This document shows, piece by piece, positions 11,329-38,041 of a DNA stretch of 64,000 bases. The DNA lies in the NCBI GenBank assembly GCA_965261735.1, contig OZ253470.1, forward strand, positions 4,122,980 through 4,186,979, in the 5' to 3' direction. The notes below the pieces were generated by a model. That model was not told the DNA's origin. It ran no database searches and saw nothing but the letters and a program-made list of their open reading frames with translations. Source of the stretch: Alphaproteobacteria bacterium (lineage in GTDB: Bacteria > Pseudomonadota > Alphaproteobacteria > SHVV01). The number at the start of each line of letters is the position of its first letter. Within the stretch, counting starts at the first letter, position 1. Position numbers and translations under genes: made by a program.

Positions 11329-11438
11329 GGCGATTCCATTCGCTGGCGAGGAGCACGGGGGCCAGTATTGCGTCACCGGGTGCAGCCGATCAATGTCCTT
11401 TCGCGCCCCGACATCGCGATCCGCGGAGCGCCCGTCGG

Positions 11439-12416: not shown

Positions 12417-12452
12417 GGGCGGCTCGGCCCGGCCGGCCAAGCGAACCTCGGG

Positions 12453-13328: not shown

Positions 13329-13438
13329 TGGGGCCCCTGGTGCATCGCGACGGCGCCCCGCATCCTAATCCAGATCAAGGCTAGGTGCACCGCGCCCGTC
13401 CTATTAGTGGTCAGGAGGAGATAGGAACAGGCGGTATC

Positions 13439-13576
13439 ATGAGCGAACTTCTTCCCTATTGGCGGCGGGTTAATTGGCGCGGCGCATTCGCGCTCGGCAG
13501 TCTGCTTGTCGTTGCCGTCGCCGGCTACGTCATTACGCTTATGGCGATCAACGGCGTAACTCACGGCAGCTTCTGA
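13439..13576 (+). CDS. Small single-TM hypothetical protein (45 aa)
   Basis: RBS AGGAGG 8 nt before the ATG. Hydrophobic helix LGSLLVVAVAGYVITLMAI. Short, unvalidated. Confidence 0.3.
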   Translation: MSELLPYWRRVNWRGAFALGSLLVVAVAGYVITLMAINGVTHGSF

Positions 13577-13636
13577 GCGGCGGACCCACGCTGGCAAACC
13601 GGGCTAACGGCTCGTTGCACATGCTATAGTCGACGC

Positions 13637-14500
13637 ATGAACGATGCGCCGAGTTCGACGGGCGTACACGCGCGGCTCGAAATATCGCGGCCGTGCCCGG
13701 CGCTCGGCGTCGAAGTCTCCGGCATCGACCTGTCGAAGCCGATGGATGACGGCCTGTTCGCCGAGGTGTTGCGGGCCTTCCACGACCATCTGATCCTCGT
13801 CTTTCGCGACCAGGCGCTGACGCCTGCGGCGCAAGTCGCGTTTTCGGCGCGCTTCGGGCCGGTCGAGCCCCACCCCCTGCGAGCCAGGCGCGGCATGGCC
13901 GGCCACCCTGAGGTGCTCCGCCTCGAGAATCGACCGGGCCAGCGCGGCGCGCGCAACGACTTCTGGCACTCGGATATTTCGTTCATGCCGAATCCGCCGC
14001 TCGCATCCATCCTCCATGCGCTCGAGGTGCCGGCGGGGTACGGCGATACGATGTTCTGCAACATGTACGCCGCGTATGACGCTCTGTCGCCGGGCATGCG
14101 GCAGATGCTCAATAGCTTGACGGCGCTCCACAGCGGCCAGGCGCTCGCGGCGCGCAACAACGATGGGGCGAGCGACGGGCTCCCGATCACCGACGTGCCG
14201 CCGTCGGAGGCGCATCCAGTGGTGCGCACGCATCCGGGTACGGGCCGCAAGGCGCTCTACATCAACCCCTACTTCGTCGAGCGCTTCACCGGCATGACGG
14301 TGGCCGAGAGCCAGCCGCTGATCGACTATCTGACGGCCGTTGCGACTCGGCCCGAGAACGTGTTCCGGCACCGCTGGCGCACGCAAGACCTGGTGATGTG
14401 GGACAACCGCTGCGCCATGCACTACGCCGTCCTCGATTACGGCGAGGATCACGTACGGCTCATGCAGCGCACGACCGCGGGCGGCGAGCGCCCGGCCTAG
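13637..14500 (+). CDS. TauD/TfdA family Fe(II)/2-oxoglutarate dioxygenase (paralog)
   Basis: Parallel motifs to the 12453..13328 protein (WHSDISF, ALEVPAGYGDTMFCNMYAAYDAL). Confidence 0.8.
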   Translation: MNDAPSSTGVHARLEISRPCPALGVEVSGIDLSKPMDDGLFAEVLRAFHDHLILVFRDQALTPAAQVAFSARFGPVEPHPLRARRGMAGHPEVLRLENRPGQRGARNDFWHSDISFMPNPPLASILHALEVPAGYGDTMFCNMYAAYDALSPGMRQMLNSLTALHSGQALAARNNDGASDGLPITDVPPSEAHPVVRTHPGTGRKALYINPYFVERFTGMTVAESQPLIDYLTAVATRPENVFRHRWRTQDLVMWDNRCAMHYAVLDYGEDHVRLMQRTTAGGERPA

Positions 14501-17777: not shown

Positions 17778-18790
17778 TCACGGTGCCGGCGGCGACATGA
17801 TCACGAGACCCCAGGGCTGGCTGCCGACAGGGATTTTCTTGACGACGGTGAGGCGCCGAGTGTCGATGACCGCCACCTTGTTCTCGCCGATAATCGTGAC
17901 GTAGGCATAGCGCCCGTCGGGCCGGAACGCGACGTTGGCCAGCGACTGGCCCACCGGTATCCGCGCTACCTCACTGAACGTGGCGCCATCGACGACGGCG
18001 ACGAAGTTGTCGCCGATGTGGGTGATGTAGGCGAACCGGCCATCGGGCGTCCACGCCATCGTGACGGGCACGCCGCCGAGCTGCTGCGTGCCGCGTCGCG
18101 CCAGGGTCGCCGTCTCGAGGACGTCGTTGGTGCCCGCGCGCGCGGTCTGTACCCACACGGTGGCGCCGTCGGGTGCGACACGGAGCATGTGCGGCTTCGA
18201 GCCCGCCGGAAAGGTGGCTCGGTGCGTGATCGTGAAGCTCTGGAGGTCGAGCGCGGCCACGGTGTCCTGATCGCGCTCCGGGAAGAACGCGACCGTGCCG
18301 TCGGGCGAAAAGTCGAGGTCGCAGGGAAAGGCACCCGTCGAAATCTCGCGCACGAGGCGCAGGGTCTCGCGGTCGACGACGGCGATGATGTTCTCGCCGG
18401 CCGCGTTGACGAACACGTGGCGCCGGTCGGGGCTCAGCATGACGCTATGTGCCGGTCCCTTGCCGATCGCGAGCCGGTGCGCGATCTGCATCCGAGCGGG
18501 ATCGATGGCAATCAGCTCGACCGTGCCGGCGACCACATCGTAGGTCCAGATAAGCTTGCCGTCCCAGAACTCCTGTTCGTTCGATAGCCAGCGCACGCTC
18601 GCCCCCAGCGGCCGCGTGGCGACGACCTCGTGGGTCGCGGTATCGATAATGGTGACATCCTTGGACGCGGCGTTGAAGGCGTAAGCGTAGACCGGCGCGC
18701 AGGAGCGCTTGAGCGAGCGCGGGCGTGGCGCCCGCGAAGAGGCACGCGGCCATCAACAAGCCGAGCCAGGGGCGTATGGTTCTATTCATG
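17778..18790 (-). pseudogene. YVTN-family beta-propeller repeat protein, with a frameshift between signal peptide and mature domain
   Basis: Body ORF 17778..18596 holds the YVTN repeats. ATG at 18790 encodes signal peptide MNRTIRPWLGLLMAACLFAGATPALAQA in a different frame. The expected continuation PVYAYAFNAASKDVTIID lies in the body frame. Confidence 0.6.
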
Positions 18791-19802
18791 CTCCCTCCGT
18801 GGCTGTGGCGGCCCATAGCCTGTCCTCGTCCTCGACCAGGCGCAGCCCCTCGTCCTCGGTCAGGTAGCGGCGTACATTCTCGGCGCCGACGCGGGCGGCC
18901 TCGATCAGGCTGCCCGCGACGACCGACGAGTTGTGCGGCGAGCCGATGACATTGGCGAGCTCGAGGAAGGCGTAGTTGGTGCGAAATGCCTCGCCCGCCG
19001 CGGGCTCGGTCCACCAACAGTCGATGGCGGCCCGAAAATCCGGATGGCTCGCGAGGTGGGCGTAGAGGGCGGCCTCGTCGATGATCAGCCCGCGTGCCAC
19101 GTTGACGAGGATGGCGTGCGGCTCCATCCAGCCGAGCTCGCGCGCCCCGATCAGGCGATATGTCGTGCGGTTGAGGGCGAGAGCGATCACGACGACGTCG
19201 GCGCCGCGGACGACGACCTCGAGATCGTCGAGCGTCCCCATGAAGTCGACCGCTTCGCTTGTCGTGCCGTTGCGGTTGATCGCGCGAATCGTCATGCCCA
19301 GGCACCGCATGAGGCGAGCGACGGCCTTGCCGATGCCGCCGAACCCGAGGATCGCGCACGTGCCGCCGCGAAGCGTAGCCGTGCGTTCGTGCTGGTTGAA
19401 CGAGCGGCGCCTCAGGTTTTCGTGCTCCGGGATCAGCCTCTTGGCGGCCGCCAGCGCCATCGCGAGGGCGTGCTCGGCAACGGGCTCCGCAAACGCACCG
19501 GCGTTTCCGGCGAAGAGGATTCGGTCGGGCAACTCGGCCACGGGGAAATGGTCGATGCCGGCGGTCAACGCTTGTACGAGCTTAAGGCTCGTGAGGAGCG
19601 CGTATTCGTCGCCGCGCAGATCACTCGCGAGGTCCCATGCAATCAGCACCTCCGCCGCGGCGATAGCCGCGCCTCGCGAAGCGGGCGGAACATCGGCCAA
19701 GAAGGTGACCTGGGCTAACTCGGCCAGCAAGCCGGCGTAGACCTTGCGGGTGTCCTCTTCAGCCGCGTGCGTGACCAGGACCCGCCGTTCGCCTGCGCTC
19801 AA
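18786..19802 (-). CDS. D-isomer-specific 2-hydroxyacid dehydrogenase (NAD-binding)
   Basis: GFGGIGKAVARL Rossmann motif, catalytic R/E/H context. TTG start at 19802 (LSAGERRVLV) is uncertain. Confidence 0.7.
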   Translation of the reverse strand: MSAGERRVLVTHAAEEDTRKVYAGLLAELAQVTFLADVPPASRGAAIAAAEVLIAWDLASDLRGDEYALLTSLKLVQALTAGIDHFPVAELPDRILFAGNAGAFAEPVAEHALAMALAAAKRLIPEHENLRRRSFNQHERTATLRGGTCAILGFGGIGKAVARLMRCLGMTIRAINRNGTTSEAVDFMGTLDDLEVVVRGADVVVIALALNRTTYRLIGARELGWMEPHAILVNVARGLIIDEAALYAHLASHPDFRAAIDCWWTEPAAGEAFRTNYAFLELANVIGSPHNSSVVAGSLIEAARVGAENVRRYLTEDEGLRLVEDEDRLWAATATEGA

Positions 19803-19818
19803 TGTCCTCGGCCCCGTG

Positions 19819-19860
19819 AAAAGAAAAAAGGACCCCGCGCCAACCGTGCGGGGTCCCAGC
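19819..19860 (-). terminator. Rho-independent terminator after the binding-protein gene
   Basis: Hairpin GGACCCCGC-N-GCGGGGTCC followed on the minus strand by CCTTTTTTCTTTTC. Confidence 0.55.
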
Positions 19861-19875
19861 GTTTTCGCGCAGTAG

Positions 19876-21036
19876 TTAGCTTCCGGCTTGCCAGAAGTCC
19901 TCACGGATGTTGACGATCTCGCCGTTGAGCCAAGCGACCACGATGATGCCGCTGCGGATGGCTTCGCCTGACCCTTCCCATCCGATGTTTCCGCTCACGG
20001 TCTCGATCGACTTGGTTTTCGAGAACGCCTCGCGAATCGACTCCCGCGACAGGTCCTTGGCCGAGTTCATGATCTTCGCCATTTGCAGTGCCGCGTCGGT
20101 CGAGATGGCGGACCAGGTGCTGGGGTCCTCGTCGTACCGCTTCTTGTAGGCGGCGATGATGTTCTGCACGTAGGGTTTGGGATCGGTCGGGTCCCACATG
20201 CCGACGAAGAAGGTGTTGTTGACCGCATCACCCGCCATCTTCTTGTAGTCGGGATGGCTGGCACCGGGGCCGGCCACGATGGGCTGATTCATGCCGACAT
20301 CGCGTGCCTGGCGTACCATGATTCCCCCGTCAAAGGGCTGCTGGGCGGTGAAGATGAGGTCGACCCCAGCGGCGTTAATGCGGGTCACCTGGGCCGAGTA
20401 ATCCGTCTCCTTGCCCTTCGCCGTCACCTCCACGAGCTCGATCCCGTGCTCCTTGGCGGCATTGCGCATGGCGTTGGCGCGGGCAACCATGGCCTCGTCG
20501 TCAACCGACCATACGAGCGCCGCCTTCCGGACGTTGAATTTCTTCTTCAGGAGCGGCATCAGCACCGGCATCGTCGACCAATCCTGAGGCAGCGACCGGA
20601 AGGTCCACTTGTTGAACCCCTGCTTCCAGCGGCCACCCGAGGAAAACGCGTACATCGGGACCTCGTACTTGTCGGCCAAGTCATGAACGGCTTTGACCAC
20701 GGTGCCGGCGCCGACGTCGAGGATGATGGGCACGCCCGGGTCGCGGCCCAGCTTCTTGAACATGGTCACCGCGGTCGGCAGGTCGTCGTAAGGTGCGTCC
20801 GCCTTATAGAACTCCAAGGGGCGGCCGTGAATCCCGCCGGCGGCGTTGATCATATCCTGACCGGCGAGGGCGCCCTGAAACATGATCTTGCCCCAGTCGG
20901 CGGCGGCACCGCTGAAGCTCTCCATGAACGGAACGCGAATGGGATCGGCCGCCTGGGCCGGAGTTGCCAACGATCCGGCCGCGACAAGCCCTAAGGCTGC
21001 CAAAACCACCGATGTCGTGCGACGAATCGGGTGCAT
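19876..21036 (-). CDS. ABC transporter substrate-binding protein (Leu/Ile/Val-binding family, Peripla_BP_6)
   Basis: Signal peptide MHPIRRTTSVVLAALGLVAAGSLATPAQA and type I periplasmic binding fold. No cognate permease or ATPase in the window. Confidence 0.8.
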   Translation of the reverse strand: MHPIRRTTSVVLAALGLVAAGSLATPAQAADPIRVPFMESFSGAAADWGKIMFQGALAGQDMINAAGGIHGRPLEFYKADAPYDDLPTAVTMFKKLGRDPGVPIILDVGAGTVVKAVHDLADKYEVPMYAFSSGGRWKQGFNKWTFRSLPQDWSTMPVLMPLLKKKFNVRKAALVWSVDDEAMVARANAMRNAAKEHGIELVEVTAKGKETDYSAQVTRINAAGVDLIFTAQQPFDGGIMVRQARDVGMNQPIVAGPGASHPDYKKMAGDAVNNTFFVGMWDPTDPKPYVQNIIAAYKKRYDEDPSTWSAISTDAALQMAKIMNSAKDLSRESIREAFSKTKSIETVSGNIGWEGSGEAIRSGIIVVAWLNGEIVNIREDFWQAGS

Positions 21037-21241
21037 GTTTTTCTCCTCCTCTGCGATTCGGGGCCTGTGCGGGCCTCGCATGCCGGCGACAATGCTTCGC
21101 CGCGGCACTTAACCGTCAGTCTATAGGGGAAATGGGGGCGGGGAAAACGCGAATTCCGCGGCCTTTCCGGTCGCTCGGGCCGTTACTGGCAAGACCCCCC
21201 CCGCCCACGAGGGGACGGGGGTTTCACGACGTGTGTGTGGC

Positions 21242-22432
21242 TTAGGAGTCCCAGAACTCGGGTGGGACGACGATGACCTTGCCGTCCTTCCAGGTCAGGA
21301 TCAAGATCGACTCCCTGATCGCTTCGCCTTTGCCCTGTCCGCCGATGGCCTTGGCCCAGCCGACGTTGCCGCCCAGCGTATTGATGAACCCGGTTTTCGC
21401 GAAAGCCCGGCGAATGCCGTCGCGCGTCAGGTCCTCGGCGTTCCAGTTGATGACCCGGCCCATGGTCAGGGCGCCGTCGGTCGTGATCGCCGCCCAGGTG
21501 GTGATCTCCTCACCGTACTTTTCCTTGTAGCGGCGCTGCATTTCCTTGACCCAGGGCCTCGGGTCGAGCGGGTTGTACAGGCCGTAGAAGAAGGTGTTTT
21601 CGACCTTTCCCTGCGACATGCGCCAGTAGTCGTCGGCCGAGCCACCGGGACCGGCGAGGATCGGCTGGTTCATCCCCATCTCACGCGCCTGCTTGACCAT
21701 CAGGCCGCCGTCGAAGGCCTGCTGGGCGGTGACGATGAGCTGGACGTCGGCCGCCTTGAGCCTGGTGAGCTGGGCCGAGTAGTCGGTGTCCTTGCCCTTG
21801 GCCGCGGCCTCGATGACCTCGATCCCCTCCGCCTCGGCCGCCTTGCGCATGGCGTTGGCGCGCGCGACCATCGCCTCGTCATCGACCGACCAGATCACCC
21901 CCGCTTTCTTGATGTTGAACTTCTTCTTGAGCAACGGCACGAGAATGGGCACCGCCTCGGCCTCCTTGGGAAGCTGCCGGAAGATCCACGGGCTCCACTC
22001 GCCGGGCCAGTCGCCGCCAGAAGAAAAGGCGTAGTAGGGCACCTTGTGCTGCGTCGCCAGGTCGTGGGTGGCGAAGATGACCGTGCCCGCGCCGCCATCG
22101 AAGACGAGCGGAATGTTGGGATTGCGCGCGAGCTTCTTGAACATGGTGACGGACGCCGGCTTGTCGTCGTAGGGCGCGTCCGCGCGATAGAACTCGAGGC
22201 AACGGCCGTGCAGGCCACCGCGATCGTTGATCATCTCGGCGCCGATCACCGCCCCCTTGAACATGAGCTCGCCCCAGTCCGCGGCGGCACCGCTAAAGCT
22301 CGTCATGTGGGGGATGCGCACCGTCTTGCCGGCGTCGCACTCGGCTGCCTGCGCCGACGGCGTCGTCACTAGCGCGGCAGCCAGGGCAAACCCTGATGCC
22401 GCCAATACCGAGAATACTAGGCGTGCTCTCAT
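21242..22432 (-). CDS. ABC transporter substrate-binding protein (paralog of 19876..21036)
   Basis: ATG at 22432 with GGGAGG RBS. ~60-65% identical to its neighbour over the full length. The track ORF extends upstream as non-coding read-through. Confidence 0.8.
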   Translation of the reverse strand: MRARLVFSVLAASGFALAAALVTTPSAQAAECDAGKTVRIPHMTSFSGAAADWGELMFKGAVIGAEMINDRGGLHGRCLEFYRADAPYDDKPASVTMFKKLARNPNIPLVFDGGAGTVIFATHDLATQHKVPYYAFSSGGDWPGEWSPWIFRQLPKEAEAVPILVPLLKKKFNIKKAGVIWSVDDEAMVARANAMRKAAEAEGIEVIEAAAKGKDTDYSAQLTRLKAADVQLIVTAQQAFDGGLMVKQAREMGMNQPILAGPGGSADDYWRMSQGKVENTFFYGLYNPLDPRPWVKEMQRRYKEKYGEEITTWAAITTDGALTMGRVINWNAEDLTRDGIRRAFAKTGFINTLGGNVGWAKAIGGQGKGEAIRESILILTWKDGKVIVVPPEFWDS

Positions 22433-22587: not shown

Positions 22588-23973
22588 CTAGGAAGCGGCG
22601 CGCGCGGCTGCGACCGGCTCGTCGCTCGCGGGCAGGTCGGCCACCGCGGCAATCGATTCGATCTCGCGCAGACGGTCGAACAGCTCCTCGGCGCGCGGCT
22701 TCGCGTAAGCCGGGCCGACGCAGTCGTAAAACTTGTCCCACAGCTGATCGGCGCGGATCGGGTTGCGGGCGTGACCCAGCGCGTACTCGATCGCGCCGCT
22801 GTCGAGGACCTCGCCGGTGCCGAGGGTCATCGTGACCTGATCGTACGGCGCGAAAATCGCATCGGCCGGATGGCGCTCCTCGGTCGTGGTCATCGCGATC
22901 TTCTTCATGAACGCCTGCACGTCGCCGCGCCGAACGAAGGCATCGGTGAGCTCGGCGAGGCCGGCACGCCCAACAACGACCGGCGCGGTCATCGCGAACT
23001 CGAGGCTGAACTTGGCCTCGAGGCCGGTCTGCGGCTGATGGTTGCGTAGGACGGTGGCTTGCGTGCGCCCAATCAGGACCTCGATGCGGTCGATCTCGTC
23101 GGCGGCGAGCGGGCGCCGCGACAGCATGTCGAAGACGCCGTCGACGGCGCGATGGACGCAGTAGCACATCGGGTACTTCTTGATGTTCAGACCCTCTTCG
23201 ATGATGTGCCACTCGCGGCCCAGAGCCGGGGGCGAGTCGACGTCGACGCGACCCTGCGGCGAGAAGGCGCTGAGGAATCCGAGCGGGTGCTCGAAGGCAT
23301 CGGCCGCTGCCGTCATCCCCGCTGCCGCCAGCCGCGTCGCCACGATGCCGCCGCGCGCCGCCTGGCCGGCATGGTAGGGCTTTGTCATGGTGCCGAAATT
23401 AGCGCCGATTCCTGACGCGGCGGAGGCGGCGAGACCAAGTGCCATGGTCGCCACGCCAGAATCGAGCCGCCGAAGCACGGCGCTCGCCGCTGCGGCGGCA
23501 ATAACGCCAAAGATGGCCGTGGGATGCCAGCCCTTTTCGTGATGCTGATCGGCATCGCGGCGCGCCAGTTCGTGCCAAACCTCGTAACCGGCCACGAAAG
23601 CCGTCACCATGTCCCTACCCGTGGCGCCCGTGGCCTCGCCCTCGGCCAGGATCGCCGGCACCAGAACGGCGCTCGGGTGACCATTTAGCGCTACGTCGTC
23701 ATAGTCCAGCGCGTGCGCGGCGGTAGCGTTGATCAACGCCGCATCAGGTGCCGCAGCGCGGGCCGACGAGAAGCAGAGTCTCGCCTCGCCCGTCGCGTCC
23801 TGACGTGTCGTGCTGCGGACGATATCGGTTGCAGGCTCCCGGCTGCCGGCGATGAGCACGCCGGCGCAATCGGCGAAACCGGTGCGGACGATGTCGACCG
23901 CCGCGCCTGGCAGCTGATCGTAGCTCACGCCGGCGATGAACTCGCCCATCGCTCGTGTAAGACCTGTAGCCAT
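22588..23973 (-). CDS. MmgE/PrpD family protein (2-methylcitrate dehydratase-like)
   Basis: 461 aa, PrpD N- and C-domain character (CHELARRDADQHHEKGWHPTA). Divergent from the tcuA-like gene. Confidence 0.75.
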   Translation of the reverse strand: MATGLTRAMGEFIAGVSYDQLPGAAVDIVRTGFADCAGVLIAGSREPATDIVRSTTRQDATGEARLCFSSARAAAPDAALINATAAHALDYDDVALNGHPSAVLVPAILAEGEATGATGRDMVTAFVAGYEVWHELARRDADQHHEKGWHPTAIFGVIAAAAASAVLRRLDSGVATMALGLAASAASGIGANFGTMTKPYHAGQAARGGIVATRLAAAGMTAAADAFEHPLGFLSAFSPQGRVDVDSPPALGREWHIIEEGLNIKKYPMCYCVHRAVDGVFDMLSRRPLAADEIDRIEVLIGRTQATVLRNHQPQTGLEAKFSLEFAMTAPVVVGRAGLAELTDAFVRRGDVQAFMKKIAMTTTEERHPADAIFAPYDQVTMTLGTGEVLDSGAIEYALGHARNPIRADQLWDKFYDCVGPAYAKPRAEELFDRLREIESIAAVADLPASDEPVAAARAAS

Positions 23974-24206
23974 GCCGTACCCTCCGCGTTAGCGCGGCCG
24001 CGTCATGGCCGCGACGGGCGTCGCCGGGTCTAGTGCCCGGGCGATGATGCCCGAAATCGGCGCCGAACGCCATGCGACGCGGGTGGCTTGCGTTAGGACC
24101 GCCGCAGGCACGGGTTGACGGGGTGTGTGGCGGCTTGTATCGCTTTATCAAGGGTTCGCGCGGGCGGTCGTTGAGCCGACATGCGACAGGAGGGGAGGGT
24201 CGAAAC

Positions 24207-25676
24207 TTGGCCGACTATGACGTGATTGTGGTGGGTGCCGGAAACGCGGCGTGCGCGGCTGCCGTCTCCGCGCGCGAGCAGGGCGCGGCACGGGTCCTGT
24301 TGCTGGAGAAGGCATCGGAGGAGATGCGCGGCGGTAACACGCATTACAGCGGCGGCCTGCTGCGGATATTTTTTGACCGAACCGAGGACCTGCTGGCGGT
24401 TATTCCCGATGTCGAAAAGCAGGCGCCCGGCTTCGTCAAGGGCGTCCCGCCCTACCCGAAAGACGAGTTCTGGGCCGACCTACTGCGCGTTACCAATGGC
24501 CGAACCGACGCCGAGCTGGCGGAGATTCTCATTGGCCGTTCGCAGGACACCATCCGCTGGATGTCGGGCAAGGGCATCCGCATGGAGGCGTCCGTTTCGC
24601 TGACCGCGATCAAGATCGGCAACGAGATCAAATGGCCGACCGGCGCGGTCGTGAGGGCCATTCACGAGGGCGTCGGCCTATCGAAGATGTGGTTCGATAT
24701 TGCCGCTGAAAACGGCGTCGAGATCCTCTACGCGACGCGAGCCGGTTCGTTGTTGCAGGACAAGTCGGGCCGGGTCAGCGGGGTCGTCGCGCATGGACCC
24801 GACGGCGTGCGCGAGATCAGCGCCCGCTCGGTCGTGCTCGGCTGCGGCGGCTTCGAGTCGAACCCGGCATGGCGGGCCCGCTATCTCGGCCGACCGTGGG
24901 ATCACGCCAAGGTCCGCGGTACGCCCTTCAACACCGGTGACGGGCTGAGCATGGCGTTCGCCATGGGCGGTCAGCCCTACGGCCACTGGACCGGCTGCCA
25001 CTCGACGCCGATCAGTGCCGATGCACCGGCATACGGCGATCGCAAGCTGACCGACAAGACCAATCGCCTGTCGTATCCGTTCGGTATCCTGGTCAACAAT
25101 CTCGGCCTGCGCTTCTTCGACGAGGGCGAGGACTTCCAGTGGTACACCTACGCCAAGCTCGGCGGCATCATCCTCAACGAGCCGGGCGGGGTCGCCTACC
25201 AGATCTTCGATTCCAAGGTGACGCACCTGCTCGAAGGCCGCTACAAGACGACCGAGCCGATCGTTGCCGACACGCTCCATGAGCTGGTCGACAAACTTGC
25301 GGTCGACCACGCGCAGTGCCGCACGACGGTCGACGAATACAATGCGGCCGCCGGCAACGGCGCCTTCGACCCGACGATCAAGGACGGGCTCAGCACCAAC
25401 GGGCTCGCGCTGCCCAAGTCGAACTGGGCGCAGCGCCTCGATTCACCGCCGTTTCTTGCCTATCCGGTCACCGGCGGCGTCACCTTCACGTTCGGTGGCG
25501 TGCGCATCAACGAGCGCGCGCAGATCGTCGATGTCGGATGGCAGCCGATCCCCGGGTTGTATGCCTGCGGCGAGATGGTGGGCGGGCTATTCCACACCAA
25601 CTACCCGGGCGGCACCGGGCTCGTCTCCGGTGCCGTGTTCGGCCGCATCGCCGGGGCCGAGGCGGCCAACGCCTGA
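24207..25676 (+). CDS. tcuA: FAD-dependent tricarballylate dehydrogenase TcuA-like flavoprotein
   Basis: DYDVIVVGAGNAACAAAVSAREQGAARVLLLE FAD-binding N-terminus closely parallels Salmonella TcuA. TTG start with AGGAGGGG RBS. No tcuB nearby. Confidence 0.7.
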   Translation: MADYDVIVVGAGNAACAAAVSAREQGAARVLLLEKASEEMRGGNTHYSGGLLRIFFDRTEDLLAVIPDVEKQAPGFVKGVPPYPKDEFWADLLRVTNGRTDAELAEILIGRSQDTIRWMSGKGIRMEASVSLTAIKIGNEIKWPTGAVVRAIHEGVGLSKMWFDIAAENGVEILYATRAGSLLQDKSGRVSGVVAHGPDGVREISARSVVLGCGGFESNPAWRARYLGRPWDHAKVRGTPFNTGDGLSMAFAMGGQPYGHWTGCHSTPISADAPAYGDRKLTDKTNRLSYPFGILVNNLGLRFFDEGEDFQWYTYAKLGGIILNEPGGVAYQIFDSKVTHLLEGRYKTTEPIVADTLHELVDKLAVDHAQCRTTVDEYNAAAGNGAFDPTIKDGLSTNGLALPKSNWAQRLDSPPFLAYPVTGGVTFTFGGVRINERAQIVDVGWQPIPGLYACGEMVGGLFHTNYPGGTGLVSGAVFGRIAGAEAANA

Positions 25677-25682
25677 GGGACG

Positions 25683-26864
25683 ATGACGGTCCAGGTCCGC
25701 ATCCCCAGCGTCTTCATGCGCGGTGGCACGAGCCGCGCGTTGATGTTTCGCCGCGAGCACCTGCCGGACGACCCGGCCGACTGGGACGCCATTTTCCTTG
25801 CCGCCATCGGCAGCCCCGATCCCAATGGGCGCCAGCTCGACGGCATGGGCGGCGGCATATCGTCGCTGTCGAAGGTCGTGGTGGTTGGCCCGCCGAGTCG
25901 CGACGATGCCGACGTCGACTACACCTTCGGCCAGGTCGCGGTCGACAGGCCGATGGTCGACTACAGCGGCAATTGCGGCAACATGTCCTCGGCGGTCGGG
26001 CCCTTTGCGGTCGATGAGGGCCTCGTCACCCGCGCCGATTCCCCGGCCACGGTCCGCATCCATAACACCAACACCGGCAAGCTCATCGTCTCGCAATTCG
26101 CGCTCGAGGGGGGTGTAGCCGCGGTCGAGGGCGACTACGAGCTGCTCGGCGTGGCCGGGCACGGTGCCCGTATCCGATTGGAGTTCCTCGATCCTGGCGG
26201 TGCCGCCACGGGGCGCCTATTGCCGAGCGGACAGGTGACCGACGCGCTCGATATTCCCGGCCATCCCGCGGTGACGGTCTCGCTCGTGGATGCGACCAAC
26301 CCGTGCGTGTTCGTGGCCGCCGAGTCGCTCGGTCTCGCCGGAACCGAGCCGGCGGAGGCGCTCGAGGGGCGACCCGAGCTCCTCGAGCTGCTGGAGCACA
26401 TCCGCGCACACGCGGCCGTGCGCATGGGGCTGGCGACGAGCCCCGAGCAGGCCAGCGCGGCCTCGCCGAGCAACCCCAAGATCGGCGTGGTCGCGCCGCC
26501 GCAATCCGCGGCGACGCTATCGGGCGCGAGCCTCGATGCGGACGCCTTCGATGTCACGGCACGCATGATGTCGATGGGGCGGCCGCATCGCGCCGTGCCT
26601 CTTACCGGCGCCATGTGCCTGGCCGTGGCGGCGCGCATTCGCGGGACCGTCGTGCACCAGGTGACGCGCGCAGCGACCTCCGCCGAGGCCGACATTCGCG
26701 TCGGCCACCCCTCAGGCGTCACCGCGTTTGCGGCCGCGGTGTCGGAGGAGGGCGGCTGGCGCGCCGACAAGGTCGTCGTCTACCGTACGGCGCGGCGGTT
26801 GATGGAGGGCAGCGTGCTGGTGCCGCAGTCCAGGCTCACAGACAGCCGACGCGCGACGGCGTAA
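25683..26864 (+). CDS. PrpF/AcnD-accessory family protein (aconitate/methylaconitate or methylitaconate isomerase-like)
   Basis: 393 aa, diaminopimelate-epimerase-like fold family signature (MRGGTSRALMF, GNCGNMSSAVGPFA). Confidence 0.7.
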   Translation: MTVQVRIPSVFMRGGTSRALMFRREHLPDDPADWDAIFLAAIGSPDPNGRQLDGMGGGISSLSKVVVVGPPSRDDADVDYTFGQVAVDRPMVDYSGNCGNMSSAVGPFAVDEGLVTRADSPATVRIHNTNTGKLIVSQFALEGGVAAVEGDYELLGVAGHGARIRLEFLDPGGAATGRLLPSGQVTDALDIPGHPAVTVSLVDATNPCVFVAAESLGLAGTEPAEALEGRPELLELLEHIRAHAAVRMGLATSPEQASAASPSNPKIGVVAPPQSAATLSGASLDADAFDVTARMMSMGRPHRAVPLTGAMCLAVAARIRGTVVHQVTRAATSAEADIRVGHPSGVTAFAAAVSEEGGWRADKVVVYRTARRLMEGSVLVPQSRLTDSRRATA

Positions 26865-26890
26865 CAGGTTCGGCAAGCCCCGAGGATGCC

Positions 26891-27751
26891 ATGAAAGCAA
26901 CGACCACCCTGCGGGCCATGATCGGCCAGGATGAGACCTTCGTCGGGCCCGGCGTTTATGACGGGCTGAGCGCCCGCCTCGTCGAGCGCGCCGGTTTCGA
27001 CCTCGTCTACGCGAGCGGCGGCGCCATCGCGCGGAGCATGGGGTTTCCCGACCTCGGCCTGATCAGCATGGCCGAGGTCGCGGCGCGGCTGAACCTCATC
27101 ACGGACAGCGTTGCCCTGCCGGTGATCGCCGACGCAGACACCGGCTACGGCAACGCCCTCAACACGCGGCGCGCGATGCGCGAGTTTCAGCGCGCCGGCG
27201 TCGCCGGTCTGCACCTCGAGGACCAGACCTTCCCCAAGCGCTGCGGCCACTATGACGATAAGACGGTCGTTCCGACGGGCGAGATGGTGCAGAAGATTCG
27301 GGCCGCGCGCGACGCGCTCGCCGACGACGATCTCGTCCTCATCGCGCGCACCGACGCCCGCGCCGTCGAGGGCTTCGACCGTACGATAGAACGTGCGCAC
27401 GCCTATGCCGAAGCGGGTGCCGACGTGATTTTCTTCGAGGCCCCGCAAAGTGTCGAAGAGATCGAGCGGATCGGGCGCGAGCTGCCCTACCCCAAGCTCA
27501 TCAACATGTTCCAGGGCGGCAAAACGCCGCTCGTGCCAGTGGCGCGCTTGCGTGACTGGGGCTACCGCCTCGTCATTATCCCGTCGGACCTGCAGCGGGC
27601 CGCGCAACACGCGATGGAGGAGGCATTGGCGCTGATCAAGAGCGACGGCAACAGCGCGGCGATGAGCGACCGCCTGACCTCGTTCGAGGAGCGCGAGGCG
27701 ACCATCGGCACGCCCGAGTATCTCGAGCTCGACCGGCGCTATCGCGCCTAA
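26891..27751 (+). CDS. Isocitrate lyase/PEP mutase family lyase (methylisocitrate lyase / dimethylmalate lyase-like)
   Basis: ICL/PEPM signature region KRCGH and DADTGYG. ATG 26891 lies within track ORF 26303..27751. Confidence 0.75.
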   Translation: MKATTTLRAMIGQDETFVGPGVYDGLSARLVERAGFDLVYASGGAIARSMGFPDLGLISMAEVAARLNLITDSVALPVIADADTGYGNALNTRRAMREFQRAGVAGLHLEDQTFPKRCGHYDDKTVVPTGEMVQKIRAARDALADDDLVLIARTDARAVEGFDRTIERAHAYAEAGADVIFFEAPQSVEEIERIGRELPYPKLINMFQGGKTPLVPVARLRDWGYRLVIIPSDLQRAAQHAMEEALALIKSDGNSAAMSDRLTSFEEREATIGTPEYLELDRRYRA

Positions 27752-27769: not shown

Positions 27770-28357
27770 TCAGGCCGCCGCCACCTCGTCGATCGCCGGC
27801 CCGCTCGCACTGAAGGGCTCGCGCGCGAAAATACGGTGCACCATCGGCGCGAAAGCCTCCATCGGCATCGTATCGAAGGCCGGGTCGAAGGCGTTCTGAT
27901 CGTATCTGTGGCAGAAATCCACCGTGGCCTCGAAGCAGGGATGCCCGCGATACCGCTCGCGCACGTTTCGGTCTCCACCCATGTGATGGGCGAAATAGTA
28001 GCGCTGGAACAGGCCGTGTTGCTTGACCAGCCAGGTGTTGGACTCGGAGACGTACGGGCGCAGAATCGTGGCGGCAAACTCGGCGTGGTTGGCGGGCGCC
28101 AACATGTCACCGATATCGTGGAGGAGGGCGACGACGACCATCTCCTCGTCGGCGCCGTCTCGCGAGGCCAGGGTCGCGGACTGTAGGGAATGCTGGAGCC
28201 GATCGATCTTGAACCCGGAGCTCGAATGGGCGAGCGATTCGAGATGGTCGAGCACCCGTTCGGCCGTGCCCTCGATGAGCGGACTGTGCAGCCGCTCCAG
28301 CAATTCGTAGTCTTCGCGCGTGCCTTCCTCCATGCTGGTGAAGCTCACCGTCTCCAT
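27770..28357 (-). CDS. HD domain phosphohydrolase
   Basis: HD motif (LLHDIGD) with downstream His and Asp residues, 195 aa. Confidence 0.65.
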   Translation of the reverse strand: METVSFTSMEEGTREDYELLERLHSPLIEGTAERVLDHLESLAHSSSGFKIDRLQHSLQSATLASRDGADEEMVVVALLHDIGDMLAPANHAEFAATILRPYVSESNTWLVKQHGLFQRYYFAHHMGGDRNVRERYRGHPCFEATVDFCHRYDQNAFDPAFDTMPMEAFAPMVHRIFAREPFSASGPAIDEVAAA

Positions 28358-29194: not shown

Positions 29195-29703
29195 GGAGGC
29201 TCGGGCCACGGCCCTATCCGGGGCGAAGGTCATTCTGTCGATCTATCGTCGTTTCGAAGCGCTGTACCGCTTCCACGAGGAAGGCCGGATACAGCGCGCA
29301 GGCTAGTAGCGGTCGCCATCCAGCACAGGGGAAGGCCCAACCGGCCGACCACGCAGATCTGGCGTAACATCGACCCGCGCCGCGTCCACCAGTTCCCCGA
29401 TCTCCCAAATGTGGTCAGTCACGCGCCCACCGCCATCGCTGGCGTGATCCGTAGCGCCTCGTGGACTCGGCAAAGTTGTACCATGCGGATGCAGTGTCGG
29501 CGCTTCACCCGCCTAACCAACGAGTTCAGCAAGAAGCTTTCGGAACCACAGGCGGCCATTGCCTTGTACGTCGCTTCCCGCGGCCTCATCAGGGACACGG
29601 GCTTTCCGGCGTCCACTCGCGGGCTAGGTGCTGGGCCTCGGCGATCTGAGCAGCTGCAACACTGGGGGCTTGTCGTCGGCGTATGCGAGCGCGAGCCTCA
29701 ACG

Positions 29704-30615
29704 TTAGAACCCGCAAAGTTGCCGTGTGATCGTTACAGTGCCGATCTCTGAGCCGTCGCGACGCAGATAGACATGCGCGAGCGTTGCGCCTGCCTCGATC
29801 CAGGGACGCAGGCCAGAGCAGTTGCTCTGCGTGAGGCTCGTCCGCATCGAGGTCGAGAGAGCATGCCTATCTACTGATAGCTCGTAGATGTAGCGGAACG
29901 TCGATCCCTGCCCTTCGACCTGTTGAAGAGTCGTTATCTCATCCACCTGCTGCGGCGTTGGAACCTCAGCCGCCATCTGTTGGAGTGCGGCATCAAGACC
30001 TTGGCTGCGGATCAGGGAGGCGAGAAGCACCGATTGCTGCTCAGTGCCTGCCTCGGCAACCCTCCGCTCTACCTCGACCTCGGCGTAGGCGGACAAATAG
30101 ACGCCTGCGACGATCATGACGATACCGGACACGACGCCACGGCCATCTGTTAGCAGGGGAATGGCCGGAATACGGTTCGCGGACACTTCGTTCTTGGAGC
30201 GCGTTGCCAGCAGCCAGAGGTTGCGCGACCGGGATGAACGCGAGCGCAGCCATCCGACCATGCCCATAAGCATCGCGCGACCGTTCCATGGCGATGATCC
30301 CGATGAAGTAGCCGACCAATACTAGGGTGACGAGCTGCACCGCCAATAAGACCCATAGGTACGCCCCAGCCATCGCGGGCAGTGAATTAAGCCAGATGAG
30401 TTGCGTCGCGGCAGCGAAGAGGAACAAAAGCCCGAGTATGCAAAGTATGGCGCCTGCCGCAATTCACCCTTGCCGCGCGCTACGATGCCCGCGACCACCG
30501 CGCCCAGGACAATGAGACCATAGCCAATTAATCGAAGGTCGTTTTCTGTCTGAAAGACTAGCTGGATGGCAATATCTTCAAGCATCCGCTTGCCATCTTG
30601 ATGCTGGCGAGGCAC
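29704..30615 (-). pseudogene. Degraded membrane protein gene, fragmented over three frames
   Basis: Three co-oriented overlapping ORFs (30322..30615, 30041..30427, 29704..30273) that together read as one membrane protein with TM helices. Local GC is lower than surroundings. Confidence 0.35.
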
Positions 30616-30806: not shown

Positions 30807-31781
30807 CTATGCCGGGCGCGCCGGGGTTACGCCAACCATGCTGTCGCGGGTGACAAGCGCCGCGAGCTGTGCCGCCGACCATCCCTCGGTGCCCGCGGGC
30901 CGCACCGGGATCACGATGTAGCGGAGGTCGGCCGTGCTGTCGACGACCCTAATCTCCGTGTGCGCCGGGAGCTCGGTGCCGAACTCCTCGAGCACGCCGC
31001 GCGGGTCGTTGACGACGCGCGAACGGTAGGCGCGGCTCTTGTACCAGGCGGGCGGTACGCCGAGCAGGGTACGCGGGTAGCACGAGCACAGCGTACAGAC
31101 GACGACGTGATGCAGGTCGGGCGTGTTCTCGAGTGCCAAGACCGGCGGCGATGCGCTCATATCGACGCCCTGGCGTGCCGCGGCGGCCTTGGCGTCGTCG
31201 AGAAACTCGGCACGGAAATCGGGCACGACCCAGGTTCGCGCCACCAGGCCGGCGCCGAGTGCAGGCGTGCGCGTTTCCATGTCGTTGATCTCGCGCTGGA
31301 CGTCCTCCGCGGTAAAGATCCTTTTGTCGATGAACAGCTCGCGAAGGGCCTCGGCGAGAATCTCATAGTCCCCCGGCGGCCGATCCGTATGTTCGATGGC
31401 CTCGTGCTCGCCCGGCGCATGAACGTGATCGCCCTGACCGATCATCGCCGCGCCGGGGGCCGTCGCCGCGTGGTCGGCCTCGAGCCGGGCCCTTACCGCC
31501 GCTACCTTCAACGCCACCTCCTCGTCGGTGATGGCCTCGCGCTCTACCATCAGGGTCTTGAGCGAGTTGACCCAGCGCTCGTAGTAGAGGAATCCCCAAT
31601 AGGTCTCGGCCGGCGTGTCCTCATTGACGCGCCGTGACTCATCGACGCGAAAGTAGGCGCGCGAGGGATGGGTGAGCAGCATCATCATCGCGTCGACCCG
31701 CCGATCGGTGATCGTGGGATCGTGCTCGGCTGTGTCGATGGGGTCGGCGTCGAGGCCGCCCACGTCATGGTGTCCGCGCAT
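30807..31781 (-). CDS. Nitrile hydratase-like protein, fused beta(N-terminal domain)-alpha architecture with CTLCSC metal-binding site
   Basis: N-terminus MRGHHDVGG resembles NHase beta. C-terminal half carries VVCTLCSCYPRTLLG, the NHase/SCNase alpha Cys-cluster. Start taken at the internal Met of ORF 30807..31829. Confidence 0.6.
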   Translation of the reverse strand: MRGHHDVGGLDADPIDTAEHDPTITDRRVDAMMMLLTHPSRAYFRVDESRRVNEDTPAETYWGFLYYERWVNSLKTLMVEREAITDEEVALKVAAVRARLEADHAATAPGAAMIGQGDHVHAPGEHEAIEHTDRPPGDYEILAEALRELFIDKRIFTAEDVQREINDMETRTPALGAGLVARTWVVPDFRAEFLDDAKAAAARQGVDMSASPPVLALENTPDLHHVVVCTLCSCYPRTLLGVPPAWYKSRAYRSRVVNDPRGVLEEFGTELPAHTEIRVVDSTADLRYIVIPVRPAGTEGWSAAQLAALVTRDSMVGVTPARPA

Positions 31782-32030
31782 GAGGAACCTCTTGGCCAAA
31801 GATGCGCCGGCGCTCGCGCTGAGCCGCAAGTATATTTTCCGCCGGCGCGGGGCTCAACGTCCTAACGACCGGCGGGGGTAGGGCCTGGGGCCGCCCCGGT
31901 TGGCGCGCGCCGGCTGCGACTCTATGATCCGGGCCGAACTGGGGGCGTCGCCGTTTCATCACAGGATACAGGACCGGGTGCCGAACCTGCCGGCGGGCGC
32001 GAACGCCCGACGCGCTGGGGCCTCGTCGCC

Positions 32031-35725: not shown

Positions 35726-36070
35726 CTATTTCATGATGTAAAAAGCCAGCTTGTTTCCATCCAAGTCCCTGAAATACCCGCCGTAGAATCCGCCAGTGCC
35801 ACGCGGTCCAAGCGCCCCCTCGTCCTTCCCCCCGAGCTCAAGAGGCGTGGCATATAATGCATTAACCTGCTCTTCGCTTCCTGCTCTGAACGCAATCATC
35901 GTGCTATTGCCTACAGTAGCCGGGTTTCCATCGTAGGGCTTGATTGCGCAGAATGCCGTTTCACCCGATGGGGCCTCCCACTGGATGAAGGTTTCTGCTT
36001 CCGCCGTCCGCTTCGCGCCGATATCTCCGAGAAGCGCATCATAGAACCGACCGGCGCGTTCAATGTCGTT
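35726..36070 (-). pseudogene. VOC (glyoxalase/bleomycin-resistance) family gene, 5'-truncated by the IS1595-family insertion
   Basis: ~85% identical to the intact paralog 61333..61704 from residue NDIERAGRFYD onward. The apparent N-terminus MSRISR is encoded by the IS inverted repeat itself. Confidence 0.6.
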
Positions 36071-37099
36071 CCTGCTTATCCGTGACATTCATCCTGCGAT
36101 GAGGAGGCGGTAGGGCATCGGGTCGGTTCGGGCGGCGCTATGGACGAAGCGCGGGATCATCGTCTGGAGTTGATAACGGCGGTTGTAGCGCCAGGCGAAA
36201 CTGACGAGGTAGCGCCCGGTGTGATCGGGGCCGAGCTTGCGATAGGTCCCGGTGACCGTGCACTTGATGTTGCCGAGCGCCGTATTGACCCATTTGAATG
36301 ACGCCACGCGGGCCGCCTTGCGTCTCGAGCCGGTGCGGATTGCCCGATGGCTGCAGGTGGCCTCGTCGAGTGCGCTCCAGCAGCCCAAGCGGTCCGTCAC
36401 AACCGCCGCGCCGGGGGCCAGCCAGTGCTTGGCGCCGCGCGCGATCTCGCGCTTGCGGAAGCCCTTGACCGGCGCCAGCTTCAGCTTGCGCGGGCGCCCC
36501 TCGGGACTGGTCGAGACCGCCGCCACGAAGGGCGTTTTGCCCGCCGCGCCGCGGCCCCGCTTGCCGCCGGAGCGCACCCCGCCGAGATAGGCGTCGTCCA
36601 TCTCGACCCGCCCCGTAAGCGCCGTCTCCCCCTCGCGCCGCGCCATCACCGCCATGATCTTGTGCTTCACGGCCCAGGCCGTCGGCTGCTTGACCCCGAG
36701 ACGGCGGCCGAGTTCCACCGACGAGATGCCGTTCTTCGCCGTCACGATCAGGTGGATGGCGGCAAACCAGACTGTCAGCGGCAGCTTGGTCGCGTGGAAG
36801 ATCGTGCCCGCCGTGGGCGATGTCTGCTTCTTGCACCGGTTGCATTGATAGAGACCCCGACCCGCCAACACGCAATGCTCCCGATGGCCGCAGCAGGGGC
36901 AGACGAAGCCGCCCGGCCAGCGCAGCCGGACCAGCGCCGCGCGGCACTGCTCCTTGGTGCCGAAGGCCTCCCGAAACGCCTCGTCGTTCAGACCACGCAC
37001 GCGCGATGCAACCTTGAACCCCATAACCGTGACCCCCTCATACAGAACATATTGAGAACATACATCCCCATAGGCGGAGTGTCACGGATAAGCAGGAAA
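36070..37099 (-). mobile_element. IS1595-family insertion sequence (ISXO2-like)
   Basis: Perfect 18-19 bp terminal inverted repeats TTCCTGCTTATCCGTGACA at 36070-36089 and 37080-37099, flanking a single transposase. No clear target-site duplication. Confidence 0.8.
36089..37024 (-). CDS. IS1595-family transposase (zinc-ribbon + DDE)
   Basis: CPCCG...CNRCKKQ zinc ribbon and ISXO2-like DDE core, 311 aa. Confidence 0.85.
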   Translation of the reverse strand: MGFKVASRVRGLNDEAFREAFGTKEQCRAALVRLRWPGGFVCPCCGHREHCVLAGRGLYQCNRCKKQTSPTAGTIFHATKLPLTVWFAAIHLIVTAKNGISSVELGRRLGVKQPTAWAVKHKIMAVMARREGETALTGRVEMDDAYLGGVRSGGKRGRGAAGKTPFVAAVSTSPEGRPRKLKLAPVKGFRKREIARGAKHWLAPGAAVVTDRLGCWSALDEATCSHRAIRTGSRRKAARVASFKWVNTALGNIKCTVTGTYRKLGPDHTGRYLVSFAWRYNRRYQLQTMIPRFVHSAARTDPMPYRLLIAG

Positions 37100-37196
37100 T
37101 GTTTTGATGACGGACATGCCCATCCGCCCCTCTCGCGCGCAGATTCGCACATCTGCTTGAACCGAAGGCCATATGCTAATGGCGAGCAGTCAAACA

Positions 37197-37811: not shown

Positions 37812-38041
37812 ATTTAAATTACCTTTCTGTTATGCGATCTTACTGCAGCAGTTATCTTAAACACTAAGGGTATCCGTCATCATGAGCTGCGCCTGGTTTG
37901 GCGGGGGCCATTTCGCTTGATTCATGCCGCCATGGCTGACTGCTTGAGCATGGCGTAGTGGCGAGCTATTGTCAAAAGTTGGTGACGCAGGTTTCAGGCG
38001 GCGCGTTCGGTTAGCTTTTCTCCGTCCTTGAATTTGACGCC

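Follow-up and report, generated by a model that had tools for sequence, protein, structure and literature searches.

What does a homolog of the flavoprotein TcuA do where its partner TcuB is missing? The question is raised by a 64,000-nucleotide stretch of DNA (the window) from an uncultured soil alphaproteobacterium of the lineage SHVV01 (assembly GCA_965261735.1, contig OZ253470.1, positions 4,122,980 to 4,186,979 of the forward strand). Here a gene for a TcuA-like flavoprotein is followed by genes for a PrpF/Mii-like isomerase and a C-C lyase of the ICL/PEPM superfamily, and lies divergent from an MmgE/PrpD-family gene. Family membership, catalytic residues, gene order and conservation are shown by the sequence comparisons. 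The genes form a module that is built from known kinds of enzyme, is uncharacterized and is widespread in uncultured soil phyla. At roughly even odds (about 0.5), the module may serve the cytoplasmic catabolism of a substituted succinate of the alkylsuccinate type, such as methyl- or 2,3-dimethylsuccinate, independently of coenzyme A (CoA). Its parts are as follows.

22588-23973, minus strand: MmgE/PrpD-family gene, 461 amino acids; Pfam MmgE_PrpD_N (1.6e-50) and MmgE_PrpD_C (8.4e-28).
23974-24206, no strand: divergent intergenic region of 233 bp between the MmgE/PrpD gene and the flavoprotein operon.
24207-25676, plus strand: gene for a TcuA-like soluble flavoprotein that uses flavin adenine dinucleotide (FAD), 489 amino acids; Pfam FAD_binding_2 (1.4e-42).
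25683-26864, plus strand: PrpF/Mii-like isomerase gene, 393 amino acids; Pfam PrpF (8.6e-118).
26891-27751, plus strand: gene for an ICL/PEPM-superfamily C-C lyase, here called type W, 286 amino acids; Pfam PEP_mutase (1.8e-51) and ICL (8.4e-16).

A preliminary description of the region had placed a module at 22588-27751, which runs exactly from the stop codon of the MmgE/PrpD gene to that of the lyase gene. The gene families, the operon layout and the lack of tcuB that it reported were all recovered by Pfam and NCBIfam searches and by tblastn of the window. The plus-strand genes form a tight operon, with 6 nucleotides between flavoprotein and isomerase and 26 between isomerase and lyase. The longest open reading frame (ORF) for the flavoprotein begins at ATG 24072, which merely lengthens it; the true start is TTG 24207, which has a GGAGG ribosome-binding site 8-12 nucleotides upstream and agrees with homologs and with public gene calls. 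Searches of the 64-kb window by tblastn (E<=1) with TcuB (two proteins), Escherichia coli PrpC, AcnA, LeuCD and electron-transfer flavoprotein (ETF) returned chance fragments only, and the same queries had no match at 1e-4 in 80 related loci. From 22 kb upstream to 36 kb downstream there is neither tcuB nor prpBC, neighbors that the preliminary description held to be incompatible with its reading.

The flavoprotein scores 552.7 bits against the NCBIfam model NF006130 'TcuA', above the cut-off of 369, and 252.9 bits against TIGR02485, below the cut-off of 372.55. It shares 36% identity with the TcuB-linked TcuA of Burkholderia multivorans and 49% with a homolog from Hydrogenophaga, and it contains two insertions relative to canonical TcuA. 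On alignment with flavocytochrome c3 (Fcc3), His365 is kept and Arg402, His504 and Arg545 are replaced by Tyr, Thr and Tyr, respectively. This pattern is identical in the window protein, its paralog clade, the Hydrogenophaga homolog and the TcuB-linked TcuA of B. multivorans. Around 8000 relatives were found in a protein search; the best 120 of these are 487-517 amino acids long, share 70-76% identity with the window protein and come mostly from soil and groundwater metagenomes. In contigs taken from one genome per species, 80 loci encode flavoproteins with 62-76% identity, all of them in metagenome-assembled genomes (MAGs) of Alphaproteobacteria, Methylomirabilota/Rokubacteria, Binataceae, 'delta', Lambdaproteobacteria, Myxococcota and Thermodesulfobacteriota. 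No TcuB homolog is encoded across these 80 loci, while tcuB directly follows the tcuA genes (about 36% identity to the flavoprotein) of Shinella and of a B. multivorans plasmid, where the order is TcuA, tcuB and an MFS transporter. The model scores, the low identity, the lack of TcuB and the common active-site pattern thus place the flavoprotein in a distinct TcuB-less clade of the TcuA family in the broad sense, and it is not an ortholog of the tricarballylate enzyme. It probably shares the chemistry of the family, as its active-site residues suggest. A match in Ruegeria pomeroyi was set aside as a split gene in an unrelated context. The literature searched yielded no paper on TcuA together with PrpF and none that treats this flavoprotein clade or gene combination.

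Both reductase arginines (Fcc3 R402 and R545), which serve in carboxylate binding and proton transfer in fumarate and urocanate reductases, are absent in all of the TcuA-family proteins aligned. The pattern would imply a different catalytic arrangement in this family, of which no description was found.

How firmly the other genes belong to the flavoprotein can be judged from 46 species-level loci whose flanks extend at least 4 kb in either direction, in which partners were sought within 6 kb of the flavoprotein gene and neighborhoods were mapped by tblastn and ORF clustering. A PrpF-family gene is present in 25 of the 46, usually directly downstream, and an ICL/PEPM-family gene in 27; the flavoprotein, PrpF and the lyase occur together in 21. 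A second TcuA paralog (48-50% identity) is found in 22 loci, the MmgE/PrpD family in six, a Leu/Ile/Val-type binding protein in two and all four families of the module in three, while the flavoprotein has no partner family in 15. The conserved core therefore consists of three genes, encoding flavoprotein, isomerase and lyase, to which the MmgE/PrpD and Leu/Ile/Val-type proteins are peripheral. Thus conservation, by which the preliminary description proposed to check its four-gene set, holds for the three-gene core and not for the MmgE/PrpD gene. The core is found in at least five phylum-level lineages. The order seen in the window recurs in two alphaproteobacterial loci (L006 and L014) and in a lambdaproteobacterial one (L034), and the Myxococcota have a permuted order. 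Many Rokubacteria encode only the flavoprotein and the lyase, or the flavoprotein beside a gene of the isocitrate/isopropylmalate dehydrogenase family. Two further ideas about membership were dropped. An HD-domain gene (27770-28357) and the Leu/Ile/Val-type proteins are not members, as their recurrence is limited to conspecific strain variants or to two of the 46 loci. A strict either/or between the second TcuA paralog and the MmgE/PrpD epimerase also fails, since both are present in L014, L019, L020 and Paracoccus pantotrophus.

The Binataceae and 'delta' loci (L043-L083) share a conserved cluster of about 12 genes. One arm encodes a CoA transferase III, a luciferase-like protein, two enoyl-CoA hydratases, VOC and HpaB-like proteins, the TcuA paralog and a lyase with the PrpB signature; the divergent arm encodes the TcuA-like flavoprotein, PrpF, TetR, MFS and MMPL. 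CoA-dependent and CoA-free enzymes are mixed in this cluster.

The second enzyme of the core is a PrpF-family isomerase whose sequence assigns it to the 3-methylitaconate isomerase type. The PF04303 match spans the whole profile (positions 1-371 of 371). Among solved structures, the protein is closest to Mii, the 3-methylitaconate isomerase of Eubacterium barkeri (3g7k, 7.4e-92), followed by PrpF (4e-85) and oxalomesaconate (OMA) isomerases (about 1e-52). It stays below the cut-offs of both the PrpF model TIGR02334 (345.9 bits, cut-off 440.55) and the OMA-tautomerase model (308 bits). It retains the catalytic Lys (PrpF K73, Mii K62) and Cys (C107, C96) and lacks the insertions specific to PrpF. 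AcnD, the partner of PrpF, has no counterpart either: tblastn detected no aconitase-family gene in the 64-kb window.

The lyase scores 295.9 bits against the prpB model TIGR02317 (cut-off 354.4) and 236 bits against NF008455 (cut-off 353), below both. Its nearest relatives are methylisocitrate lyases, the petal death protein of carnation (1zlp, the second-best solved relative at 1.2e-57) and dimethylmalate lyase; it is also related to oxaloacetate hydrolase (OAH) and the PA4872 decarboxylase, both of which score lower than the methylisocitrate lyases. The KRCGH loop is present and PrpB Y43, S45, D58, D85, D87, E115, R158 and E188 are all kept, as is the F186/L234/P236 pocket of E. coli PrpB (with Ile for L234). 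Relative to the E. coli enzyme, Phe replaces both T212 and R270 and xG replaces EF at positions 213-214, with N210 and R241 unchanged. Lyases encoded beside the flavoproteins split cleanly into two classes on these positions. Type W (N F x G ... R F) is found in 17 loci, including the window, from Alphaproteobacteria, Lambdaproteobacteria, Myxococcota and Rokubacteria. Type M (N T E F ... R R), the pattern of E. coli PrpB itself, is found in 24 loci from Binataceae and 'delta' and adjoins the second TcuA paralog wherever the locus extends far enough. The petal death protein and type W have F270, a hydrophobic residue at 212 and the GGKTP motif in common.

PrpB residues T212, R241 and R270 presumably hold the distal carboxylate of the succinate moiety, and the petal death protein reportedly prefers H or methyl, not carboxymethyl, at C3. 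From these two points, taken with the class signatures, the substrate of type W is probably a 2-methyl-3-(H/alkyl)malate, split into pyruvate and a monocarboxylate, and that of type M probably a methylisocitrate-like acid. The signature of the window lyase, with Phe at 212 and 270, points away from a tricarboxylate and towards a C3 substituent that is small or hydrophobic. In this respect the label 'tricarboxylate-type' chosen in the preliminary description probably does not suit the module, whereas the likeness it drew to methylitaconate and dimethylmalate chemistry agrees with the nearest relatives of both isomerase and lyase.

The MmgE/PrpD protein had been called PrpD-like. It scores 26.8 bits against the best PrpD model (NF042438, cut-off 950), is 19% identical to E. 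coli PrpD and has no PrpD structure at E<=1e-5 among its solved relatives, which rules out a PrpD ortholog. Its best solved relatives are iminodisuccinate (IDS) epimerase (1.1e-56) and Bacillus subtilis 'IRG1' (4e-47). Six of the seven residues of the IDS-epimerase set are kept (H85, D88, H99, H150, K198 and K266), most of which E. coli PrpD lacks. In the itaconate cluster of Pseudomonas and Cupriavidus, the MmgE/PrpD member is the (S)-(R)-methylsuccinate isomerase Msi (PMC9875883, PMC12290011). Msi has been proven biochemically to act on the free acid and uses the IDS-epimerase residue set; according to the authors, its gene always adjoins that of methylsuccinyl-CoA dehydrogenase (PMC12290011). 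The annotated neighborhood of the MmgE/PrpD gene in the window contains no acyl-CoA dehydrogenase gene. Given the IDS-epimerase/Msi residue set, an epimerase role appears at least as likely as a dehydratase or hydratase role. Among its relatives, homologs with the full His/Tyr pair are encoded directly beside TcuA-like proteins with 55-57% identity in Paraburkholderia and P. pantotrophus. A 46% identical homolog from Variovorax lies in a cluster of acyl-CoA dehydrogenase, CoA transferase, lyase and MaoC genes that resembles the methylsuccinate cluster, and an MmgE/PrpD ortholog (58% identity) occurs only in L014. MmgE/PrpD and LeuCD-like genes seem to replace each other beside TcuA-like genes, which favors a hydratase role.

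From these assignments we infer a substrate, a direction, a hydratase and an electron acceptor for a five-step route. In the first step, the MmgE/PrpD protein would interconvert stereoisomers of the free acid, as methylsuccinate isomerase does, and so feed a stereospecific dehydrogenase; alternatively, it may be the missing hydratase of the fourth step. The flavoprotein would then remove two hydrogens beside the carboxylate to give an ene-dioate of the mesaconate/itaconate or methylitaconate type. IrdA, a PF00890 flavoenzyme, interconverts itaconate and methylsuccinate, and the proposed second step would be this itaconate reductase reaction in reverse. The electrons would pass to an acceptor other than TcuB that is not encoded nearby, with ETF a candidate by analogy with a Bradyrhizobium relative. 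In the third step, the PrpF/Mii-like isomerase would shift the double bond or turn it cis, yielding a citraconate- or dimethylmaleate-type product. A hydratase encoded outside the operon, for which a LeuCD-like pair stands in the equivalent cluster of Hydrogenophaga, would add water to form a (2R)-2-methyl-3-substituted malate. Finally, the ICL/PEPM lyase would cleave the C2-C3 bond to give pyruvate and acetate, propionate or a similar acid. A (2R)-hydroxy acid intermediate fits the recurring neighbors that act on such acids, namely the lyase, Iso_dh, D-2-hydroxyacid dehydrogenase and Ldh_2.

Several points weigh against this route. Its substrate is deduced from homology and gene context only, and neither the hydratase nor the electron acceptor is encoded in the window. 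Since the MmgE/PrpD family lies near the core in only six of the 46 loci, the epimerization would not be a general part of the module, and in the window protein the second base of IDS epimerase, Y145, is a His within a local 'HH'. R241 of PrpB is kept in the lyase, so that a distal carboxylate is possible, and the role given above to T212, R241 and R270 is our assumption. Model NF006130 files the flavoprotein as TcuA, and the PrpF-like gene of Shinella, 55% identical to that of the window and accompanied by canonical tcuAB and acnA, fits an aconitate isomerase.

These last observations bear on an unlikely alternative, in which the flavoprotein is a dehydrogenase of tricarballylate (or methyltricarballylate) with another acceptor and the PrpF-like protein is an aconitate or methylaconitate cis-trans isomerase. 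Housekeeping aconitase would then make isocitrate or methylisocitrate, which the lyase would split to succinate and either glyoxylate or pyruvate. The canonical TcuA active-site signature, the NF006130 score (553 bits), the Shinella locus (tcuA-tcuB divergent from acnA, TauE and the PrpF-like gene), the exact PrpB signature of the adjacent lyases in Binataceae and 'delta' and the retention of N210 and R241 are all in its favor. However, identity to TcuB-linked TcuA is 36% and the score stays below TIGR02485; TcuB and TcuC are not present; and the window-type lyase has Phe at 212 and 270, where PrpB-type enzymes have Thr and Arg. Moreover, cis-aconitate needs no dedicated lyase to enter the tricarboxylic acid cycle, and tricarballylate is achiral, which leaves an epimerase without a role. 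Rather less likely again is a route that dispenses with a hydratase, so that the three conserved genes suffice: the flavoprotein would desaturate a substituted malate to an enol-oxaloacetate analog, the PrpF-like protein would act as a keto-enol or delta-isomerase in the manner of OMA tautomerase, and the lyase would hydrolyze or decarboxylate a 3-substituted oxaloacetate, like the petal death protein, oxaloacetate acetylhydrolase or PA4872. The 308 bits of the isomerase on the OMA-tautomerase model, the closeness of the lyase to the petal death protein and its kinship with OAH and PA4872 speak for this, as do the 2-hydroxy- and 2-oxo-acid enzymes (Iso_dh, D-2-hydroxyacid dehydrogenase and Ldh_2) that adjoin related loci. 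Yet the isomerase is closer to Mii and PrpF than to the OMA tautomerases, whose cut-off it misses, the lyase matches methylisocitrate lyases better than OAH or PA4872, and the Hydrogenophaga cluster encodes a LeuCD-type hydratase. To our knowledge, no TcuA-family enzyme oxidizes malate.

The direction of the flavoprotein reaction might also be reversed. Many soluble PF00890 enzymes are fumarate, urocanate or itaconate (IrdA) reductases, and no acceptor of the TcuB or ETF type is encoded nearby, so the flavoprotein could reduce an enoate such as itaconate or mesaconate, either to detoxify it or to dispose of electrons, with the isomerase supplying the substrate. This appears quite improbable: the protein has no electron-input domain (heme or flavin mononucleotide-binding) and no donor gene, both reductase arginines are replaced as in oxidative TcuA, linkage to a C-C lyase and uptake proteins indicates catabolism, and the hosts are soil lineages with aerobic-type gene content. 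Least probable of all, and by our estimate a very slim chance, is that the four genes are neighbors by accident with unrelated functions. The four-family set does occur in only three of the 46 loci, 15 loci have the flavoprotein without any partner family, and the region is flanked by hot spots for insertion sequences (ISs). Against this, the plus-strand genes stand 6 and 26 nucleotides apart and recur together in at least five phylum-level lineages, and Paracoccus, Paraburkholderia and Hydrogenophaga have clusters of these families as well.

The module combines pieces of four known systems. The tcuRABC genes of Salmonella enterica and of B. multivorans and Shinella plasmids encode an FAD flavoprotein that belongs to the family of the window protein, shares its unusual active-site signature and presumably carries out the same desaturation of a free acid beside the carboxylate. 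The window flavoprotein differs from theirs in its 36% identity to B. multivorans TcuA, its place below TIGR02485 and its two insertions, and the module lacks TcuB, TcuC and TcuR, being linked instead to an isomerase and a C-C lyase. The lower pathway of nicotinate fermentation in E. barkeri (Mii, DmdAB and Dml) contains the closest relative of the isomerase and a lyase of the same ICL/PEPM class, and with the LeuCD/DmdAB-type hydratase of the Hydrogenophaga cluster its sequence of isomerase, hydratase and lyase is reproduced. Unlike the E. barkeri pathway, however, the module has no B12 mutase, no nicotinate genes and no hydratase in the window; an FAD dehydrogenase is the entry, and the hosts are aerobic soil lineages. 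The AcnD/PrpF variant of the 2-methylcitrate cycle also has an isomerase of the PrpF family beside a lyase of the PrpB kind, with its KRCGH loop and methyl pocket. The module differs from it in having no PrpC, AcnD, PrpD or PrpE, in an isomerase and a lyase that fall below the equivalog cut-offs, and in a lyase without T212 and R270 of PrpB.

The fourth system is the itaconate/methylsuccinate cluster of Pseudomonas aeruginosa and Cupriavidus necator (Ict, Ich, Ccl, Mcd and Msi), which converts branched C5 dicarboxylates to pyruvate and a C2 unit (PMC9875883, PMC12290011). It has an MmgE/PrpD enzyme with the IDS-epimerase residues, and the substrate of Msi is a free substituted succinate. The rest of that cluster is CoA-dependent, using a CoA transferase, an acyl-CoA dehydrogenase, a MaoC hydratase and a citramalyl-CoA lyase, none of which is encoded in the window. 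No methylsuccinyl-CoA dehydrogenase gene adjoins the MmgE/PrpD gene of the module, and His replaces the catalytic Tyr of Msi and IDS epimerase. As a single enzyme, the petal death protein, a broad 2-alkylmalate lyase and oxaloacetate hydrolase, resembles the window lyase in F270, a hydrophobic 212 and GGKTP. It is nevertheless a plant enzyme with no pathway context, and it is without R241 and P236, which the lyase keeps. Three of the four module proteins score below the relevant equivalog cut-offs. Because the defining partners (TcuB, AcnD/PrpC, the B12 mutase and the CoA enzymes) are absent, the module belongs to none of the four systems. The preliminary description was thus largely right, with three refinements: a three-gene core, an epimerase-like MmgE/PrpD protein and a lyase that is not of the tricarboxylate type.

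Cultured bacteria encode related clusters. Plasmid pBPS33-1 of Hydrogenophaga sp. BPS33 contains, at 266-273 kb, TctC, a TcuA-like protein (49%), LeuC-like and LeuD-like proteins, TctC and PrpF (56%), and thereby shows a hydratase within the same logic. Paracoccus versutus has MmgE/PrpD, PrpF, an FAD oxidoreductase and TctBAC. All four families lie within 16 kb, at about 261-277 kb, on pPAN3 of P. pantotrophus DSM 11072, together with a TRAP transporter, a GntR regulator and a D-2-hydroxyacid dehydrogenase. In Paraburkholderia the MmgE/PrpD gene stands directly after a gene for a 55% identical flavoprotein, and in Bradyrhizobium the gene for a relative with 47% identity diverges from ETF genes. 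In Shinella, the tcuA-tcuB pair diverges from acnA, TauE and the PrpF-like gene described above. Enzymes of the D-2-hydroxyacid dehydrogenase family adjoin the related clusters of Hydrogenophaga, Shinella and P. pantotrophus. Rokubacteria, Shinella and Paracoccus have Iso_dh-family or 2-hydroxyacid dehydrogenase genes beside the flavoprotein, and these neighbors point to a hydroxy-acid intermediate.

One TcuA-like subclade (47-48% identity) has a different setting on p53363 of Bradyrhizobium guangxiense (L089) and pTAV3 of P. versutus (L095). Its neighbors are sulfonate-type ABC transporters (NrtA/SsuA), a phosphosulfolactate synthase and a sulfate-exporter-family transporter, with ETF alpha and beta also in Bradyrhizobium. 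This subclade may be a dehydrogenase for a sulfo-carboxylic acid.

Downstream of the MmgE/PrpD gene and on the same strand lie three further genes of possible relevance, assigned by Pfam, and a gene for a beta-propeller protein.

21242-22423, minus strand: Peripla_BP_6 (LivK-type) solute-binding protein, paralog 2.
19876-21039, minus strand: Peripla_BP_6 (LivK-type) solute-binding protein, paralog 1.
18786-19904, minus strand: D-isomer-specific 2-hydroxyacid dehydrogenase.

The binding proteins, which are the two Leu/Ile/Val-type paralogs of the preliminary description, share 55-56% identity. Such proteins rarely accompany the flavoprotein (two of 46 loci). They possibly serve in uptake, and the dehydrogenase is a possible accessory enzyme. 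No regulator or permease gene was found in the 64-kb window. Consensus scans for promoters and terminators between 17.5 and 29.5 kb did no better than on shuffled sequence, and the promoter scan gave nothing above chance in the 233-bp divergent region.

The locus itself exists in strain variants, which are present in four ENA assemblies. A copy of the TcuA-like protein on MAG contig CBDCMV010000002.1 (locus L005) is 100% identical to that of the window, and the DNA of this locus is 99.5-99.6% identical. Variants L001-L005 are 99.5-99.9% identical over the module and differ in IS insertions at 29300-30540, with break points just downstream of a rhomboid gene (near 29307, 29683, 29738 and 30393-30401). 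Other parts of the window, whose GC content is about 67%, have features of their own. Positions 36000-52700 form a low-GC island (53-62% against about 67%) that is probably a mobile defense island; its cargo comprises an IS1595 transposase, a WYL/WCX regulator, a GmrSD-type nuclease, an AAA_15/AbiEii-like ATPase and IS110 and Mu-type transposases. At 30807-31829 on the minus strand, one ORF of 340 amino acids joins NHase_beta_N and NHase_alpha into a fused nitrile-hydratase-like protein, adjoined by MFS transporters. Two amidases stand back to back at 8638-9912 (plus) and 9922-11376 (minus), followed by DUF1194 and TauD-family dioxygenases at 12453-13328 (minus) and 13637-14500 (plus); the region 8638-14500 may represent a further small island of catabolic genes. 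An RtcB RNA ligase encoded at 4883-5461 on the minus strand is confined to its C-terminal part (profile positions 237-426 of 426), owing either to truncation of the gene or to a mis-set start.

Several consequences follow for the families concerned. The name 'tricarballylate dehydrogenase TcuA', given automatically to thousands of these proteins, probably does not apply to a large fraction of such genes in soil metagenomes, because the clade never has TcuB and is wired to other partners. The two clean lyase signatures, W and M, provide a sequence marker for the substrate class, and P. pantotrophus DSM 11072 (pPAN3) and Hydrogenophaga sp. BPS33 are cultured carriers. A wider and more doubtful extrapolation is that the TcuB-less clade consists of soluble dehydrogenases of free alkylsuccinates. 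Together with the Mii-like isomerase and the two lyase classes, they would make up a CoA-independent pathway, widespread in uncultured soil phyla (Methylomirabilota, Binatota, Myxococcota and Alphaproteobacteria), for branched di- or tricarboxylic acids of C5-C7, with an electron route unlike TcuB or acyl-CoA dehydrogenase/ETF. Were this true, its substrates could include methylsuccinate from anaerobic itaconate reduction. If the route proposed for the window holds, roles could be assigned to members of the MmgE/PrpD, PrpF and ICL/PEPM families, all three poorly resolved, and branched dicarboxylic acids such as methylsuccinate, the environmental importance of which has been recognized only recently (PMC12290011), would be open to degradation by a second pathway that needs no CoA.

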